Below, one piece after another: positions 16,533-25,747 of a stretch of DNA of 64,000 bases. Origin of the DNA: Candidatus Bathyarchaeota archaeon (lineage in GTDB: Archaea; Thermoproteota; Bathyarchaeia; 40CM-2-53-6); assembly GCA_963726255.1 (NCBI GenBank), contig CAVSBL010000002.1, forward strand, positions 1,568,001 to 1,632,000, written 5' to 3'. Positions within the stretch are counted from its first letter, which is position 1. Every line of letters starts with the position of its first letter. A program made the translations under genes and the position numbers. The notes beneath the pieces are model-generated. The model saw only the letters and a list, made by a program, of their open reading frames with translations, had not been told where the DNA came from and ran no database searches.

Positions 16533-17815
16533 ATGGGGAAAAGCAGTCTGCCACCCGAAACCCAAACTCAACGTTTCGAATTCTTAAAACGGAAATTTCA
16601 GGAGTATTACAAATCCGCCAGATCTTCCCTCAAACCGCCACCGGAGATGGCTGAACGCGAATTCGGGTTCCTGCTTTTCCCGCAAAGAATAATGTTGCGA
16701 CACAAGGCCTTTCACGACTTTGGTACCTTCACTGATTCGCTCATATCACTGGCTCCTTCAGATGTTTACTATTCCACGGCGTACTACGCACACCCCGACC
16801 TCGAGATGGACCAAAAGGGTTGGAAGGGCTCGGATGTTGTCTTCGATGTTGACGCAGATCACATAGACACCCCATGCAAAGAAACACATGACATGTGGGT
16901 ATGCAGCAAGTGCAAGGAGACGCGGAGAGGAAAGAAGCCAACAAAATGTCCCAAGTGTGGCGCGGAGAAAATAGATGAAAAACCTTGGCTTTGCGTCCGA
17001 TGCCTGATCGCAGCAAAAGAGGAAGTCCTAAAACTAATCGAATTCCTCTCAGAAGACTTCGGAATAAAATCTAATCAGATGCACTTGTTCTTCTCCGGTC
17101 ACAGAGGATATCACCTTCACATCATCTCCGACAATTTGAAAATACTGGACGACATGCAAAGGAAGGAGATAGTTGACTACGTCCTAGCCTTGGGACTGGA
17201 TCCGGCCGAGCAAGGCCTGTATCAAGACCTCTTAGAGAATAGGCATCCAATTGTCATTGGGCCAGACCTGACTGACCCAGGGTGGCGCGGCAGGCTTGCC
17301 CGTGGAGTATATCAAATCCTAACGGAATGGGATAAACAACGGTTGGTTGAGCTCGGATTCACTGCGGTGCTGCCAATCAAATTCTGAACGACCGTGACGC
17401 AATTAAGAAAGAGTGGTCGAAAAAAATGCTTTGGAGCTCCTTTCAAGACAAGTGGCACATAAATGAGAAAGTCTGGAGGAACATCGTTGAGAAAGCGATG
17501 AGCCTCGTCGCCCTACCAGCCCAAATCGATACAGTTGTGACCACAGACATACACAGATTGATCCGTATGCCAGAAACCCTCAACGGCAAGACAGGGTTCA
17601 AGGCTTCCGAAGTTGAGATCGGGCGCCTCGAAGAATTCGATCCATTCTATGAACCTGTAGTCTTCGAAGGAGTCCAGAACGTTCAGGTCACAGAAGCACC
17701 TGAACTCAGATTACGCGACCAGAACTATGGGCCATTCGCCGACGAGAAAGTTGAGTTACCTCTCGCAGCAGCAATCTTACTCATAGCTAAGGGCGTTGCA
17801 TCCCCGGTGAACTAA
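16533..17815 (+). CDS. priS: DNA primase small subunit PriS (single-base frameshift near 17365, probably an assembly error)
   Basis: REFG, DVDAD and FSGHRGYH in ORF 16533-17387; IDTVVTTDIHRLIR.P.TLNGK in the -1 frame; one extra base near 17365 joins them. Confidence 0.9.
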
Positions 17816-20007: not shown

Positions 20008-22781
20008 TTAAGGCTTATTCAAGGTGACGACCGCTCTGGCTGGGTTGTGATCATTGTCTCCCGGCCAAGTGGCGGTTAGCATGAAGCTCCCAGATACGCT
20101 AACTGTCCAAGTGAAGTTCATTGTTGTGGAGTTCATGATTAAACTCCCAATCGGTACGAAGGTCTTGTTGTCGAGGCTGTATGATACGGTAACGTTGGCT
20201 CCAGTGACGAACGGTGTCATTTGAACCGTCACCGTTACGTTCGACCCTACGGGCACTGAACTGGTTGATGTTGAGATACTTAGGGCGACGTTCGCCACCG
20301 TTACGGAAACTTGTTGGGGCGCCGTTGAGGTCTCTGAGTACGGCCCTTGCGCACCTAGGTAGTGGGCTCGGACTAGGACGTTTCCAACGTCAGGTGTCCA
20401 AGCGTAACTATACGTCCCGTTTGAAGATACAGGGACCGATCTTATTGGCAACCAAGATTGGCCGCTGTCATCGGAATATTCCAAATTCACTTGTGGGTTA
20501 CTGATTGTCAGTGGCTTTCCAGAGGTATCCGTGAGGTTTCCGGCAAAGATCACTTGATCTCCGTATGTTAGCTGGCTTTTGACTGGCTTAAGGGTTAGGA
20601 GAGCCGGTTTTCCAATTTTGACTTGGTACAAGAATACGAAGTTGTTCGAGGAAGAGAAAACACGCGTAAGGTATGGAGAAGGCTGCTCAGTGCCTGACGT
20701 TGTCGAGAAAGCCATCATGTAACCGAGCATGGTGTGGTCGTTAAGCCGGTTATTTGTGGCGATCGTGTCGTTACTCACAATCTTCCCCTTCGAGTCCATT
20801 AACACCTGAGTGTAACTTGCACTGGTACTACCAGTAGAAGTGCCGGTAAGGGTTTCCTGGTAGATGACCTTGTAGTTCTGCCACATTGTGTTGTTTCCGA
20901 TGCGTGCCATCCAGTACCATTTCCCATCCTCGCCGAATCCCTGGTAACCTCCCGAAGTGCCCCCTGACGGGGTGATGAAGAATGCCACGTATGACACGTT
21001 GTAGCGGCGAGGTTAGGGATTGCCAGGGTCATATTGTCGAGGAAGGTTTGAGCTATCATAGCTATCTGCGTGGAGTTCTGGGTACCGTTATCTGCAAGGG
21101 TCCGCCGTTCGCCCAATGCGGTTATCCAGTATCCGTAGTCCCACCAAGCGAAGATAACCGATCCCGGAGCTGTATTCTGCCGCATCCACGAGAGCGCCTC
21201 AAGCCAATCCGAATACTTCAACTCCTGCCCTGATGGTGGAGCCGTGGGAATACTCGAAGTGACGATTGTTGCGGGTTGGTATGATCCGCGCACCGCAGTC
21301 CAGAACGTTGGGATTATCGCTATGAGAAGGATTAGGAAGATGGCGACGCCGAACTCTCGGCCTACTCTACTTATCACCCGAGTTTTATGTTTCGGATATA
21401 TCACCGCCTCGCGCACAATGTCAACTGCGGGTTTGCCGAGTTCCACCGTGCCGATGGCCGCTAAGAGGCAGAAGGCTGGAGCAAGGAGCAACGTCAGACG
21501 GACGAAGGATGCTGCAAAATAGACAGCGGTTACTCCCCAGAGAAGGACGAAGATATCATCGTCTCTAGACCTTTGCAATATGAAAATGAACCCGAACAAA
21601 ATCAGAAAAATAAGGGCTCCAAACTCGTAGTAGAATGAGCCCCATGTTGCCGGCTGGTGTTCAGCAACACTCTGAATGATTGGAACGTCACCACGTATGA
21701 ACGGATTTATTACCGCATAGAATTTGCCGTAGGGTAGAGAGACGATGTGCAAATAGGAAAGGCCGCTCACCACGAGTATGGTTCCAAGTACCACGGTCGC
21801 CAACGTGTAAATCTGATGCTTCCTGTTCGTGATATATGTGGACGCCTCGCGAACGAGCAGAATGACCTCCCCAACAGGGATTACAAGCCAAGTAAAGTCA
21901 CTGAGGGAGGCCAAACCCAACTTGGGAACCAAGAAGGGTGTAAAGAGCAAGAATATTCCCATAGCAACTGAATAGCTTATGAAGAATTTTTTCGAAGAAC
22001 GCCCCAGAATCCCCAAGACCATCGCGTACAAAACCAACAAGTCGAGCGGGAAGTATGCCGCTGCCCATGAGGCAGCCAAGTAGAAGAGCAAAAAGCCAGT
22101 CAAGCCAGCATATATCAGCGTCCTGCGAGTCGAGGAGTTAGGCAGAGTCGACCTCCTGAAGAATAGGAAAATCAGAATCATCAGCAGAATGCCAAGCGGC
22201 TCATGACGAAGGAAGCCAAGTTGGGTTCGGCCAATACTACTTGGGTTCAAAGCCAAAAACAGGGCAGTGAATAACCCAGCGCCCTTTCCCCAGAAATCTT
22301 TCCCAAGAAAGTAAGCAGCCAGAACGGTAATGGTTCCTGCGACTACGGGGAAAATTACTGCCACTACAAACACGGATGCGTTTACGCCCACATCGTGCAA
22401 GAACATTGTAATAGCCGCTATCACGAAGGCTGTGCCGTACAGATTCCACGTCGGCATATCCGCACCGTATGGATACCAACTCATCGTATCATGCCAACTA
22501 AACCAAGCCAGGAACCCGTGATCGACTACATACTGCGCCATACGCCATTGCAAGTATGGATCAAATTCGTTGAGGAAGAAGCCCCAGCGAATCGGCATTA
22601 TGCGGACTGCTAGTGCCAAGAGGACAATCAAAGCAATTACAATTGCTTCGATGACTGTTCCCCTAGAAATGCCGGAGAGAACTTTGCGGGTTCCTTCGAC
22701 CCGGCCGGCAAGAGTCTCGCGGTTAATGTATTTCCCCAAGAAGCCACGGAGCTTCCTGAGCGCTTGCCGGGTTGCTGACAT
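20008..22781 (-). CDS. aglB: Oligosaccharyltransferase STT3/AglB with C-terminal Ig-like extension (single-base frameshift near 21005)
   Basis: EFDPY, SVAEHQP, WWDYG, DNGTQN, then EDGKWYWMARIG in the next frame; about 924 aa once repaired. Confidence 0.9.
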
Positions 22782-23015
22782 TCGACCGCCTGCAGATTTT
22801 TCAGACTACACTTTGTGTGTTATAAAAGGTTGGTGAGCTACAACATCAGCTAAACGACGCTGCCCCCAGTTCCTGCAACGGAATTCGATGTTAGACCGTC
22901 CTATCACAAGCCCTGCTTGTCAAATTGACCGCTCCGTACGGTTAAGAAACCAAAGTTCAACTAGCAAAGACCTTTCAGGATTCGGAGCGAATCCGTATCA
23001 GTCGTGGCTGATAAC

Positions 23016-23255
23016 ATGCCCAGCACATACCTTAGGTGCCCTTCCTGCGGGAAAACAAACACATCGGATGCCAGGTATTGCATTGGTTGCGGGTCAATAC
23101 TGAATCCAGTTTACTGTTCTTCTTGCGGGACCAGTAACCCCGATGGCTTGGAGCATTGCCTGGAATGTGGGAACACGCTCCCCACACTAACAGGCGTTAG
23201 TTGGAAGCCGATCGTTACTGTCCTCAGGCCCACTTCAGCAATGGTTAACCTCTGA
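23016..23255 (+). CDS. Double zinc-ribbon protein
   Basis: Four CxxC pairs (CPSC, CIGC, CSSC, CLEC). Confidence 0.75.
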   Translation: MPSTYLRCPSCGKTNTSDARYCIGCGSILNPVYCSSCGTSNPDGLEHCLECGNTLPTLTGVSWKPIVTVLRPTSAMVNL

Positions 23256-23348
23256 AATCGCCGTGGAACCACAGTCCCGCTGAAGAACCCTCCTCTGAGA
23301 CGTCCTATCGCAAACTATGAGAACCTTGAGAACACGGGCTGGCACTGC

Positions 23349-24473
23349 CTATCTCCTTCTTGAATAACCATACTTGCTTGGGTCATAGAAGGGCGTTTTG
23401 ACTATCGTTCCTTCCTCCCGCCGATCTCGCACCTCAACTCCGACAACCGCGCCTTCGCGGGCAATTTCGCGGCCAACGTATCCCATTGCGATACCCCTGT
23501 TCAGAACAGGTGATAGGGTTCCGCTTGTGACCGTTCCTACAGCTTTCTCCTGATGAATAATGTTGAAACCGTGCCTGGGAATGACACGCCTCTTTGTCAC
23601 TAGGCCGATGCGTGTTCTCGGCGTTCCCTTTTCTTTAAGTTCCTGCAACCTTTTCTTGCCGATGAATTCTTTGTGCAGTCTTACGACGAAGCCTAGCTTC
23701 GCCTCGAACGGGTTCGTGGTCTCGTCCATGTCTGTTCCATATAGGCAAAGGCCAGCTTCCAAGCGCAAAAGGTCTCTGGCCCCCAAACCGCATACCTCAA
23801 GGCCGTACGGTTTGCCAGCCTGTAAGATACTATCCCAAACCATTTGTGCCTTTTCAGCTCTACCTACCGGAGAATCCCAGACACATAATTCGAACCCGTC
23901 CTCCCCGGTGTAGCCAGTTCTGGAAACCAAGGCCCGAGCTCCAGCAATTTCAGCCCATGCACATCCGAACCGAGGAAGCTTCTCAAGTTGAATGCTGCTC
24001 AATTGCTGCACTACGGAGATCGCTTTGGGGCCTTGCACAGCGAACATCGCAACATCATCTGACACGTCTTGAATGTCGACGCTTAGGCCTCTGGAAGCGG
24101 CCAAAATCCAATCGTAGTCCTTGGACCGGTTCGCCGCATTGTAGACCATTAGGTGCTCAGCTTCCTGCAACCGGAAGACCAGCACATCATCCTTGATTCC
24201 CCCGTCATTGTTGCAGATGAGAGAATACTGCCCTTGACCGCTGCCGAGGGACGCAACATCATTCGTAGTTACAGCGTCAAGCAATCTCTGCGAATCTTCC
24301 CCCCGAATTATTGCACGACCCATGTGACTTACATCGAAAATTCCTGCAGCGTTCCTAACAGCCAAAGATTCAGGGATGATTCCTTTGAACCAGAGTGGCA
24401 GATTGTAACCTGCGAACTCAGCCAAATGTCCATTTTGCTCATGGAAACTCTGCAGCTGCACATCTTTGAGCAA
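23349..24473 (-). CDS. gcvT: Glycine cleavage system T protein
   Basis: FDVSHMG, SRTGYTGEDGFE, GLGARDLLRLEAG. Confidence 0.96.
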   Translation of the reverse strand: MLKDVQLQSFHEQNGHLAEFAGYNLPLWFKGIIPESLAVRNAAGIFDVSHMGRAIIRGEDSQRLLDAVTTNDVASLGSGQGQYSLICNNDGGIKDDVLVFRLQEAEHLMVYNAANRSKDYDWILAASRGLSVDIQDVSDDVAMFAVQGPKAISVVQQLSSIQLEKLPRFGCAWAEIAGARALVSRTGYTGEDGFELCVWDSPVGRAEKAQMVWDSILQAGKPYGLEVCGLGARDLLRLEAGLCLYGTDMDETTNPFEAKLGFVVRLHKEFIGKKRLQELKEKGTPRTRIGLVTKRRVIPRHGFNIIHQEKAVGTVTSGTLSPVLNRGIAMGYVGREIAREGAVVGVEVRDRREEGTIVKTPFYDPSKYGYSRRR

Positions 24474-24510
24474 GCTATTTCGCTCTTACAGCTGCGGAGT
24501 CTTTGTACGG

Positions 24511-24684
24511 CTAGGCCGTTTCTTCGTAAGGAACAATCTTGACTTTCTCAGTTGCGAAATCCAGTTTCTTCTTGCATTGGGGGCAAATACCATTATGCCT
24601 TTGAATGATCTCTGTTGGTGTTTCAAGTTCAAGCCCATGATAGAGAATTGAGCCACAGGCTTCGCAAATAATCTTCTGAGGCAT
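24511..24684 (-). CDS. Small Zn-finger protein
   Basis: MPQKIICEACG...CPQC, two CxxC; co-oriented with gcvT. Confidence 0.72.
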   Translation of the reverse strand: MPQKIICEACGSILYHGLELETPTEIIQRHNGICPQCKKKLDFATEKVKIVPYEETA

Positions 24685-24765
24685 AGTCGAACACACTACT
24701 CATGGGCACAAGCAAGGCAACATATTTTAGCCTCGTGGTCATTTCACATGCGTGTGTCGTAGAAT

Positions 24766-25224
24766 ATGTTGGAAAACCTTCGAATCAAACTACGCAGACT
24801 GCCATGGCGGCTGCAACGAACCTTCACAAATCTCAGTTATTCACTAAGAATCTTCAGGTCGCCTACTGCACGAAGGATGAAGCCTTCGACAACAGTTATG
24901 GCCATAGCAGTTCTTGTGTTCGTCGGCTTCATTTTGGCTGGAGGCATCTACGACATAATGGAACGCCCAATCTCGCTGCTCCCATCTCCTACGGGATACT
25001 CAGTGGTAATCAAAGGAACCTTGGGGCAGCAGACCTTGAACGAGAGCTTGATCGCAGCGTTCCTCTACATGCTTGGCCTCGGAGGGCTGTACATGCTGCT
25101 GCGGAGTACGCGATTTGCCTACAGGCCACGCAATGCCTACCTTCTGCTCATTCTAGGCACTCTTACTGTACTCTTGGTAGTGTTCTATTCGACCGCACTG
25201 ATTAATACCAAAATCGGCGGCTGA
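24766..25224 (+). CDS. OSTC/DC2-like (OST3/OST6 family) 3-TM membrane protein
   Basis: ILAGGIYDIMERP, GQQTLNESLIAAFLYMLG and final K.GG resemble eukaryotic DC2 motifs (recalled, not aligned computationally). Confidence 0.72.
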   Translation: MLENLRIKLRRLPWRLQRTFTNLSYSLRIFRSPTARRMKPSTTVMAIAVLVFVGFILAGGIYDIMERPISLLPSPTGYSVVIKGTLGQQTLNESLIAAFLYMLGLGGLYMLLRSTRFAYRPRNAYLLLILGTLTVLLVVFYSTALINTKIGG

Positions 25225-25234
25225 CCGCATTAGG

Positions 25235-25747
25235 TCACCAGTAGGCCGATTTGAGGCGCAGGCGGTAAGCGACAACATTCGTGAGAAAGTGAACGGGCGG
25301 AGTTACAAAGAGCAGTATTGCAATAGCACCCCAACTGATTCTGTAGAACGGAGAAACGAGCAATAGTGCTCCAACAACAAAGTCCAGTTGGTCTACCCCA
25401 GGCAATGCGCCACCTGGCTTAATTCCAAGCCTCCTCTTCAGAAACGCCCCAGCCAAGTCACCGAAAAGCGCACCTGCTGACGCCAAGAATGCGATTGTAA
25501 ACAGATTCTTTGAAAACAAGATGTACCCAAAGACACCTACTATGGCACCTATGATTAGGCCACTCAGGAATCCGCGGACAGTCTTGTTGTCCCCGAGAAT
25601 CCTCTTCCCATCAGGAAGGGATTTGCCGAAATCGATTGGTAGGCCTCCGCCGAAAATCACTGGCGCGCCGTTCGTGCAGTAGGTTGGCACAATTATAGAG
25701 AGTCCGGAAATCCAATCCTGCGTCGAAGGCCACAAGCTGTCCACCAT
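25235..25747 (-). CDS. carS: CDP-archaeol synthase
   Basis: P....N, PIDFG...DGKRILGDNKT.RG, GDL.G.F.KRR.G, DQLDF, H...N. Confidence 0.95.
   Translation of the reverse strand: MVDSLWPSTQDWISGLSIIVPTYCTNGAPVIFGGGLPIDFGKSLPDGKRILGDNKTVRGFLSGLIIGAIVGVFGYILFSKNLFTIAFLASAGALFGDLAGAFLKRRLGIKPGGALPGVDQLDFVVGALLLVSPFYRISWGAIAILLFVTPPVHFLTNVVAYRLRLKSAYW

Follow-up and report, generated by a model that had tools for sequence, protein, structure and literature searches.

Many-subunit oligosaccharyltransferases (OSTs) are regarded as a eukaryotic and, lately, an Asgard trait, and archaeal AglB as a single-subunit enzyme. In the available text of PMC7226087, the archaeal OST is described as a single subunit and the characterised AglBs work alone. 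Does a soil Bathyarchaeon (TACK/Thermoproteota) also encode an accessory subunit for its STT3/AglB? The question is raised by a window of 64,000 nucleotides (the whole stretch of DNA that was analysed, numbered from its first letter), in which a gene resembling human OSTC/DC2 lies near STT3. The features concerned are the following.

20008-22781, minus strand: STT3/AglB, as two overlapping ORFs (20799-22781 and 20008-20997); motifs, Pfam, orthologue and read contigs.
23004-23255, plus strand: 83-aa protein with a double zinc ribbon (DZR), flanked by STT3 and gcvT; Pfam.
23349-24473, minus strand: gcvT (aminomethyltransferase); Pfam.
24511-24696, minus strand: zinc ribbon of 61 aa with a CxxC...CPxC pattern, in no assigned family, divergent from the DC2/OSTC-like gene.
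24685-24765, no strand: divergent intergenic region of 81 bases between the zinc-ribbon and DC2/OSTC-like genes, read directly from the sequence.
24766-25224, plus strand: DC2/OSTC-like (Ost3/6 membrane-domain-like) gene, 152 aa; listed ORF, Pfam, PDB search, AlphaFold2 and profiles.
25235-25747, minus strand: CDP-archaeol synthase CarS, convergent, 10 bases downstream of the DC2/OSTC-like gene; context only.

The original prediction had described ORF 24766-25224 as an OSTC/DC2-like protein of 152 aa with three transmembrane (TM) helices, close to an STT3 with eukaryote-style motifs and separated from it by gcvT and two zinc-finger genes. All of this was borne out. The DZR gene, gcvT and the 61-aa zinc-ribbon gene occupy the 1,984 bases that part the STT3 start (22781) from the DC2-like start (24766), and the motifs EFDPY, SVAEHQP, WWDYG, DNGTQN and EDGKWYWMARIG were all found across the two minus-strand STT3 ORFs. 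These ORFs overlap because one base is missing after plus-strand position 21006. STT3 is intact in nature: the extra base was present, and the frameshift absent, in contigs from all four public runs (three studies), an unknown base placed after 21006 gave a read-through product of 924 aa with no internal stop, and an intact 924-aa orthologue was found in one relative (locus L013). The genome holds a single STT3 copy, whose C-terminal ~300 aa bear Ig-like (Big_3_5/PKD) domains. It belongs to the same catalytic family as the single-subunit AglB-L of the euryarchaeon Archaeoglobus fulgidus (3WAJ/5GMY), with which it has WWDYG and the cell membrane in common. However, its best PDB match was human STT3A (E 3.8e-73), whereas A. 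fulgidus AglB matched STT3 of the same clade only marginally (E 7e-6 to 1e-5), which supports a eukaryote-like character for the Bathyarchaeon enzyme.

OSTC was the top match for the neighbouring ORF in all three sequence searches. Specifically, the single sequence compared with PDB chains by phmmer retrieved human and canine OSTC only, the best match being 6s7o_H (E 2.1e-6, query residues 32-151 against 21-144 of 149). A profile built from 20 relatives matched OSTC at E 4.4e-8 and no further PDB chain at E<=10, and another from 68 diverse relatives reached OSTC at E 1.8e-17, with polar motifs agreeing in loops and helix ends, compared with E 4e-8 for the MAGT1 membrane domain (residues 216-326) and E 1 for yeast Ost3. 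Similarly, the four best Foldseek matches of the AlphaFold2 model were OSTC chains (prob 1.00), with yeast Ost3, 6s7t_H (the small chain of human OST-B) and Ost6 ranked below them among unrelated chains; the OSTC matches had E-values of 1.6e-3 to 1.6e-2, none at E<=0.001, and TM-scores of 0.46-0.65, from a mediocre monomer model (mean pLDDT 66.5, pTM 0.40). The Pfam family OST3_OST6 (PF04756) scored E 2e-5 and 24.6 bits, under its 27-bit gathering cut-off; the match spans profile positions 176-288 of 294, which make up the membrane half only. This half was also matched (E<=0.01) by 55 of the 72 relatives scanned, and 23 of the 72 reached 27 bits. Short hydrophobic proteins such as this one can look alike by chance or composition, in which case the ORF would be an unrelated membrane protein, and the Pfam score below cut-off and the weak Foldseek E-values would fit that explanation. 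Nevertheless, the profile match to OSTC with its polar motifs, the agreement of the relatives on the same PF04756 half and the fact that OST chains alone rank first in sequence as well as in fold searches bring this explanation close to refutation. The ORF product and human OSTC/DC2 are true homologues, with a similarity far beyond chance.

The product combines basic N-terminal cytosolic helices with three TM helices and an external hairpin, and has no thioredoxin domain. In the AlphaFold2 model, two N-terminal helices precede TM 42-66, the hairpin 70-82, TM 91-119 and TM 121-150. Arg and Lys, read directly from the sequence, are concentrated at the N-terminus and in the TM2-TM3 loop, a charge pattern that agrees with the DC2 topology given in the accessible portion of PMC5674889. 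Alignment of the relatives revealed the conserved motifs GG(I/V)YD, QTLNES and RSTRFAYRPRNAY, and W14, R18 and N22 are invariant in the conserved N-terminal cytosolic segment. Compared with OSTC/DC2, the STT3A-specific subunit of OST-A (6S7O chain H, 8B6L chain J, 8PN9 chain H), its best match in sequence and fold, the archaeal protein is of similar length (152 versus 149 aa), likewise has three TM helices, a cytosolic N-terminus, an external C-terminus and no thioredoxin domain, and has motifs in common with it where TM1 ends, ahead of TM2 and within TM2, at ~28-30% identity over the aligned part. In contrast to OSTC/DC2, which resides in the ER, it belongs to the cell membrane, and its family has an invariant cytosolic loop of its own (RSTRFAYRPRNAY). 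The last three TM helices of Ost3/Ost6 and TUSC3/MAGT1 (PF04756; subcomplex II of yeast OST, human OST-B) are also homologous to it, but it lacks their luminal thioredoxin domain and first TM helix, and hence the four-TM layout of PF04756, and yeast Ost3 was barely detectable; by ranked E-values, the archaeal protein is nearer to OSTC than to Ost3/6. Fused thioredoxin and TM forms were absent among proteins of 294-2000 aa searched with the 68-sequence profile, which counts as weak evidence. Two other loci in the genome matched PF04756, through its thioredoxin part only and unfused to the DC2-like protein; we took them as ordinary thioredoxins because of this restriction and because the search also fires in 12 of 14 control genomes.

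Of 151 Bathyarchaeia genomes sampled, 140 have the DC2-like gene, mostly as a single copy (91 of the 94 genomes of high quality). In a sample of 301 genomes from the phylum, 170 carried it and 278 carried STT3; in many of the phylum's genomes STT3 occurs with no DC2-like gene. Both genes were present in 132 Bathyarchaeia genomes, on one common contig in 47. Forty-three of these 47 pairs lay within 10 kb, every one of the 43 in divergent orientation and from 17 families in all, and the spacing was at most 700 bp in seven genomes. The divergent arrangement of the DC2-like gene against the zinc-ribbon/STT3 arm was kept in several families outside the class. In compact relatives, a zinc-ribbon gene of 55-65 aa immediately precedes STT3 in the same orientation and lies between it and the DC2-like gene. 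gcvT is missing from these compact clusters and from the same position in the loci of two relatives (L019 and L021); it is a lineage-specific insertion that parts the zinc-ribbon gene from STT3 and stands outside the system. In this genome the gcvT insertion splits a conserved divergent cluster, of which STT3 forms one arm and the DC2-like gene the other. The original prediction was right that these two genes do not form one operon, but it understated their linkage. Among closer relatives, linkage says little on its own since a whole 12-kb block is syntenic, and in seven relatives at ~50% identity no STT3 was seen in the upstream DNA examined.

The 83-aa DZR gene is kept in closer relatives only and lies outside the wider cluster. 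The 61-aa zinc ribbon, which probably starts at a conserved ATG at 24684, gave generic zinc-ribbon noise only in searches of Pfam, NCBIfam, PDB sequences and the ESM Atlas and with Foldseek on its AlphaFold2 model (pLDDT 74). Between it and the DC2-like gene, the 81 bases contain one A+T-rich, TATA-like stretch near 24722-24731 and might hold a promoter common to both genes. Co-tracking of the zinc ribbon with the DC2-like gene across the phylum was considered and rejected, as the distributions did not match: of 301 genomes, 228 have the zinc ribbon, some of them from families that lack a DC2-like gene (f32, 41/43; f41, 20/20), and it is missing from families that have one (f36, 0/17; f40, 0/11; f43, 0/6). 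The accessible part of Makarova et al. 2015 (PMC5898192) contains nothing relevant on AglB-linked membrane or zinc proteins.

A true homologue could still act apart from STT3, as a membrane protein tied to lipid synthesis through its CarS neighbour or related to cation transport. The Pfam family name includes 'transporter family', and CarS and the DC2-like gene are convergent neighbours in 21 of 22 loci, while other families keep this adjacency in 5 of 7 loci, although a convergent pair has no common promoter. Separation from STT3 is also frequent: the two genes are on different contigs in 85 of the 132 genomes and 115 and 413 kb apart in two others, and the zinc-ribbon neighbour, as described above, extends to families without a DC2-like gene. 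Against this reading stand the divergent link to the zinc-ribbon/STT3 arm retained outside the class, and two further lines of evidence, the company of an OST1-like gene and the modelled complex.

The same contig carries an ORF of 583 aa (G000:C2:1160 kb) that matches Ribophorin_I/OST1 (E 7.9e-16; 58.6 bits, where the cut-off is 25). In its product, a hydrophobic, signal-like segment at the N-terminus is accompanied by a single TM helix and a helical tail. This tail matched 8whn_A, a solved structure of the cytoplasmic domain from an Asgard OST1, at E 2.2e-6. Ribophorin_I matches were found in 62 of the 301 phylum genomes, and all 62 also carry the DC2-like gene. Six-frame Pfam searches of the genome, which are weak for small divergent proteins, gave no match at E<=1 for OST48_N, DAD and KCP2 and noise-level matches for Ost5 and Ost4 (best E 0.104 and 0.718, respectively); in these searches, subcomplex III (Ost2/DAD1 and Wbp1/OST48, with Swp1 left out) and the mini-subunits Ost4 and Ost5 were not found. 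The Asgard OST set (STT3, OST1/ribophorin I and 'OST3/6', in MK-D1 and others) comprises the same three components, with the MK-D1 OST1 cytoplasmic domain (8WHN) homologous to the Bathyarchaeon tail. For the Asgard OST, AlphaFold2 models published in PMC11417166 can be superimposed on the human translocon. Unlike that set, the present one belongs to a TACK/Thermoproteota host, in whose genome Ost2, Wbp1, Ost4 and Ost5 had no significant match.

In the model of the complex, the DC2-like protein lies on STT3 residues 360-492 through its own residues 42-150. The ipSAE was 0.75, compared with 0.00 for the best of three controls, a value that may be driven by likeness to the solved human and yeast OST structures; 116 of 157 solved complexes reach the ipSAE mark, as against 2 of 215 mismatched pairs, a calibration that is rough here because custom alignments were used. 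The runs agreed in at least 85% of contacts, with a partner pLDDT of at least 72. From our reading of the hydrophobic stretches, residues 360-492 would correspond to the end of EL5 plus TM10-13. OSTC/DC2 likewise sits on the last STT3 helices, and three helices of yeast Ost3 contact Stt3 TMH10, 11 and 13 according to the available text of PMC7226087. The modelling therefore gives in silico support to the STT3-DC2 complex that had been proposed, and in it the DC2-like protein would bind STT3 at its last TM helices. With this confident model set against controls at 0.00, and with the 62 out of 62 co-occurrence of the Ribophorin_I-like gene, a function apart from STT3 appears improbable.

We therefore favour, as probable, a DC2-like protein that is an STT3-packing accessory subunit with a structural role in a small heteromeric OST, alongside the OST1-like protein. 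The product of ORF 24766-25224 would correspond, in archaea, to the OSTC/DC2 - Ost3/6 membrane module of eukaryotes: a three-TM subunit whose N-terminus faces the cytoplasm and whose C-terminus lies outside. Most likely, it would pack on the final four TM helices of the only STT3/AglB in the genome, and STT3, the DC2-like and the OST1-like proteins would together form the oligosaccharyltransferase at the cell membrane. By analogy with eukaryotic Ost3/DC2, its likely role would be to hold the flank of STT3 next to external loop 5 and to the side of the lipid-linked oligosaccharide.

The translocon coupling suggested in the original prediction leads to a more specific proposal, in which the DC2-like protein would act as a translocon adaptor, docking STT3 on SecYEG for co-translational glycosylation while the OST1-like tail holds the ribosome. 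Profiles rank OSTC well above Ost3/6-type chains, the architecture is that of DC2, with three TM helices and no thioredoxin domain, and the best PDB match of STT3 is STT3A. The N-terminal cytosolic segment is conserved, and deletions in this segment of DC2 lower its function (accessible portion of PMC5674889). Moreover, the OST1-like tail has a homologue in the cytoplasmic domain of Asgard OST1, which pulled down human ribosomes according to PMC11417166. On the other side, the KCP2 partner had no match at E<=1 in the genome, and the closer OSTC match may only reflect retention of the short ancestral form by OSTC. According to PMC5674889, DC2 accompanies the STT3A-type enzyme in animals, plants and Dictyostelium and is absent from fungi, so the translocon role could be a later eukaryotic specialisation. 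We consider the adaptor role unlikely, and retain the structural accessory subunit as our reading.

The DC2-type gene is near-universal in sampled Bathyarchaeia and coupled to STT3 in several families, with an OST1-like gene alongside, which suggests that accessory OST subunits are old and widespread in archaea. More tentatively, and as less likely than not, a heteromeric OST might be ancestral to much of Thermoproteota and the Asgards, made up of STT3, a subunit of DC2 type and an OST1 whose tail is of the ribosome-binding type. Its genes would descend from a compact cluster in which the DC2-like gene diverges from the zinc ribbon and then STT3. The cytosolic zinc-ribbon protein of 55-65 aa would be an archaea-specific partner or regulator that had gone unrecognised, and the short DC2 form would be the ancestral one. 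If this short form, and not the thioredoxin-bearing Ost3/6, came first, an OST-A-like, translocon-proximal architecture would be far older than eukaryotes.

Homologues of OST1 and OST3/6 in TACK and Asgard archaea had already been published (PMC11417166; PMC10307638). The novelty of the first reading was overrated, and that published picture is unchanged by the Bathyarchaeon result. The fresh part is the conserved three-gene cluster with its small zinc-ribbon gene, which we have not found in print. These observations offer concrete biochemical targets in non-Asgard archaea, and the unstudied zinc-ribbon gene as a possible further partner. The supplement of PMC11417166 gives neither length nor accession for the MK-D1 'OST3/6'. 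A cluster of 150-aa proteins from Promethearchaeota/Hermodarchaeota belongs to the same DC2-like family, and for one Bathyarchaeota member of this family the NCBI record already carries the name 'OST3/OST6 family protein'.

The original prediction had placed a small ORF resembling human OSTC/DC2 near an STT3 gene and had read the pair as part of a candidate eukaryote-like oligosaccharyltransferase (OST) that may be coupled to the translocon. The presence of both genes was confirmed: the 152-aa ORF at 24766-25224 (+) appeared in the ORF table with exactly the predicted coordinates, and all of the claimed STT3 motifs were found in the overlapping ORFs 20799-22781 and 20008-20997. The locus is organized as follows.

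20008-20997, minus strand: STT3, second part, 329 aa, with Ig-like Big_3_5 domains (Pfam)
20799-22781, minus strand: STT3, first part, 660 aa, with Pfam STT3 (E 2.4e-37) and the STT3/PglB core
23004-23255, plus strand: double zinc ribbon (DZR, Pfam), 83 aa, between STT3 and gcvT
23349-24473, minus strand: gcvT (Pfam)
24511-24696, minus strand: zinc ribbon, 61 aa, between STT3 and the DC2-like gene
24766-25224, plus strand: DC2-like gene, 152 aa
25235-25747, minus strand: CarS (CDP-archaeol synthase), convergent, 10 bases past the DC2-like gene

The genome (2.42 Mb in 5 contigs; completeness 98.5%, contamination 9.3%) carries the window on contig 2 and, according to a search of its contigs, a single STT3 copy. 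The two STT3 frames of the window join near 21000-21012, and a relative that is 93% identical (L013) encodes a single intact STT3 of 924 aa. The frameshift was checked with Logan contigs from four public runs of three studies, aligned on 20600-21400, and one additional base after + strand position 21006 was present in all four. The contig of the best-matching run, which possibly represents the assembly's own source sample, was otherwise identical to the window save one substitution, while the remaining three runs are independent of the assembly. When an unknown base was inserted at 21006/21007, STT3 read through 924 codons with zero internal stops. Since the four runs carry the extra base and the frame is thereby restored, we attribute the break to an assembly error or a private variant, probably a consensus error. 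With the L013 STT3 as query (90% identical to the window STT3 over the first 591 residues), the PDB chain search matched human STT3A (E 3.8e-73), yeast Stt3 (E 2.3e-62), human STT3B (E 5.5e-59) and A. fulgidus AglB (E 7e-6). The L013 STT3 also presented the double sequon DNGTQNST, reportedly characteristic of the enzymes of TACK archaea, Asgards and eukaryotes (PMC8993221). STT3 proteins in the window's order measure ~910-930 aa, with ~300 additional C-terminal residues that contain Ig-like Big_3_5/PKD domains (20008-20997 in the window), and the open frame spans ~660-780 aa in most other Bathyarchaeial families.

When the DC2-like protein was compared with all PDB chains using phmmer, only OSTC was matched (6s7o_H, E 2.1e-6; 6ftg_3, E 3.6e-5). 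Similarly, a profile (A1) built from 20 Bathyarchaeial sequences matched OSTC at E 4.4e-8 and no non-OSTC PDB chain at E<=10. When 1.84 billion representatives were searched exhaustively with a profile, 228 proteins matched at E<=0.001. Among the 150 of these 228 matches listed, nearly all were 50-200 aa long, and 55 of the 72 relatives scanned from them matched Pfam OST3_OST6 in its membrane half (E<=0.01), 23 reaching the 27-bit cut-off. A profile of 68 diverse sequences (A3) matched OSTC at E 1.8e-17 and human MAGT1 residues 216-326 at E 4e-8, and yeast Ost3 at E 1 only. Shrimal et al. (2017; PMC5674889) expressed doubt over the kinship of DC2 with the MagT1/TUSC3 oxidoreductases; the A3 matches argue for relatedness of their membrane parts. 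The AF2 model of the DC2-like protein, of moderate quality (pLDDT 66.5, pTM 0.40), begins with a pair of N-terminal helices, followed by TM1, a hairpin, and then TM2 and TM3. Foldseek searches with this model returned nothing at E<=0.001 and ranked four OSTC chains on top (prob 1.00, E 1.6e-3 to 1.6e-2), with yeast Ost3, the human OST-B small chain 6s7t_H and Ost6 at lower ranks, interspersed with unrelated chains. OSTC was on top in every sequence search, in agreement with the likeness originally predicted. As in OSTC/DC2, there are three TM helices, the thioredoxin domain is absent and the architecture is DC2-type. Arg/Lys-rich segments are found at the N-terminus and in the TM2-TM3 loop of the family (A1 alignment), which agrees with the topology reported for DC2, with a cytosolic N-terminus and an external C-terminus (PMC5674889). 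Strict membership of Pfam OST3_OST6 was rejected both by score (24.6 bits, under the family cut-off of 27) and by domain make-up. Judging from these comparisons, the protein is related to, and predicted to work like, the DC2/Ost3 membrane module.

Regarding its linkage to STT3, the latter was located <=8 kb upstream of the DC2-like gene, in the window's order, in 13 out of 22 fetched loci of relatives. Up to the ends of their contigs, seven other loci (~50% identity) kept gcvT, the zinc ribbon, the DC2-like gene, CarS and RadB, and STT3 was not found within the upstream DNA that they cover; L033 had neither arrangement, and the contig of L012 lacks upstream DNA. CarS/DC2-like adjacency was conserved in 21/22 related loci and in 5/7 loci of other families, and the DZR gene (23004-23255, +) was kept among closer relatives only. 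Synteny among near relatives says little on linkage; because the whole block is syntenic in them, the positions of DC2-like and STT3 matches were compared in the class sample (151 Bathyarchaeia genomes), taking distances between the matched parts. Both genes were present in 132 genomes and shared a contig in 47. The matched parts were <=10 kb apart in 43 of these 47 genomes, from 17 families, and divergent in all 43, with distances <=700 bp in seven genomes (families f18 and f21); in the other four of the 47, the genes were separated by 21-22 kb (two genomes) and by 115 and 413 kb. The other 85 out of 132 genomes carried the genes on different contigs, which is uninformative where MAGs are fragmented, and in some families, e.g. 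f20, the separation is probably real.

Seven loci from other families presented a compact form, in which a zinc-ribbon gene of 55-65 aa lies divergent from the DC2-like gene, with STT3 downstream of the zinc ribbon, on its strand and 15-140 bases from it (compact-cluster zinc ribbons: L037:1066-1233, L038:3919-4113, L039:1099-1296, L041:1058-1225 and L042:3391-3555). Such clusters occur in several families inside and outside Bathyarchaeia. The window ORF 24511-24696 is homologous to this zinc ribbon, with CxxC...CPxC, LY, E and G invariant in the alignment (A4), and in the window gcvT has been inserted between the zinc ribbon and STT3. Within the class sample, the zinc ribbon was <=1 kb from the DC2-like gene in 68/98 cases on a shared contig, invariably on the opposite strand, and <=1 kb from an STT3 match in 30/63 such cases, where both invariably had the same strand. 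Outside the class, hand-picked same-contig cases among the matches listed comprised 22/48 DC2-like/zinc-ribbon pairs that were divergent and <=220 bp apart (8 families), and 13/20 three-gene cases that were compact canonical clusters (f44, f45 and f50). Pfam, NCBIfam, PDB and Atlas yielded no family assignment for the zinc ribbon. That it tracks the DC2-like gene was ruled out, since, in the phylum sample, it occurs in DC2-less families and is absent from some DC2-bearing ones. Any tie to OST is more likely to be with STT3, or the zinc ribbon may be a general factor.

The complex was modelled with STT3 residues 1-590 (alignment A2, 11 rows) and the DC2-like protein (A1) as partner. The ipSAE was 0.75 (0.74-0.76 in three runs), and the highest-scoring of three controls gave 0.00; an ipSAE of 0.75 was reached by 116/157 solved complexes and 2/215 mismatched pairs, a calibration that is only rough here because analyst-built alignments served as input. 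At least 85% of the contacts were common to the runs, and the partner pLDDT was at least 72. The modelled interface involved STT3 360-492 and DC2-like residues 42-150; by our own reading of hydrophobic stretches, the former would correspond to the end of external loop 5 (right after SVAEHQP) and TM10-TM13. According to a review, three Ost3 helices touch Stt3 TMH10, 11 and 13 (PMC7226087). The score against the controls speaks for the predicted contact; since human and yeast OST structures are already solved, it may reflect likeness to these rather than binding.

A ribophorin-I/OST1-like gene was located on the same contig as the window.

G000:C2:1160040-1160543 (L008:733-2484), at ~1.16 Mb: OST1-like ORF, 583 aa, Ribophorin_I E 7.9e-16

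An identical copy on contig 3 (G000:C3:5167-5670) suggests a duplicated or redundant contig, consistent with the 9.3% contamination estimate. The ORF encodes a hydrophobic signal-like N-terminal segment, a single TM helix and an extended helical tail. Residues 443-578 matched PDB 8WHN (E 2.2e-6), the cytoplasmic domain of OST1 from Asgard MK-D1, which reportedly pulled down human ribosomes (PMC11417166); this solved domain is homologous to the helical tail. Pfam searches of this genome gave zero matches at E<=1 for OST48_N, DAD1 and KCP2, and noise-level matches only for Ost5 and Ost4.

Distribution of OST-related genes in the class and phylum (Thermoproteota) samples; DC2-like counts were obtained with the A1 profile for the class (151 genomes) and the A3 profile for the phylum (301 genomes)
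DC2-like gene: class 140/151 genomes, 91/94 high-quality, 76/80 genera, single match in all but one; phylum 170/301
STT3: class 141/151; phylum 278/301
Ribophorin_I: phylum 62/301
Zinc ribbon: class 144/151; phylum 228/301

Specifically, the phylum sample included families bearing the DC2-like gene (e.g. f38, 23/25; f45, 17/18) and families without it (f32, 1/43; f41, 0/20). Comparison of the two tables showed that all 62 Ribophorin_I-positive genomes also carried the DC2-like gene, a nested pattern rather than a statistic, as kin are non-independent and divergent OST1s will surely escape a Pfam model built from eukaryotes. The DC2-like family also includes one Promethearchaeota/Hermodarchaeota cluster (150 aa).

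According to Eme et al. (2023; PMC10307638), Ost1 and Ost3 homologues had previously been reported in Asgards, and other subunits were added there. Carilo et al. (2024; PMC11417166) described OST1 and OST3/6 in eukaryotes, TACK and Asgard archaea, and superimposed AF2-modelled Asgard OST onto the human translocon. Among NCBI records of the DC2-like family, one from Bathyarchaeota already bears the name 'OST3/OST6 family protein'. Our full-text literature search, with subscription journals and bioRxiv supplements outside its reach, found no description of the DC2-like/zinc-ribbon/STT3 cluster or of the class-wide linkage. Altogether, comparative and model evidence supports well a putative multi-subunit OST in this Bathyarchaeon. 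What is added here is a DC2-like gene that is near-universal in Bathyarchaeia, its conserved divergent linkage to STT3, the co-occurrence of an OST1-like gene, and a neighbouring zinc-ribbon gene that is as yet unstudied.

DC2-like relatives from the collection of species-representative genomes were nearly all Bathyarchaeia/Bathyarchaeota MAGs by title, with a few under bacterial names. L015, L017, L025, P0096 and P0322, filed under bacterial MAG names (Acidiferrales, Methylomirabilota, Acidoferrum and Zixibacteria), presented a clearly archaeal DC2-like locus, and these contigs are probably mis-binned. Elsewhere in the window, the primase small subunit consists of two consecutive ORFs, 16533-17387 and 17426-17815 (+). 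Because relatives share both pieces, with ~64 bases between them, this may be a natural split and not an error.
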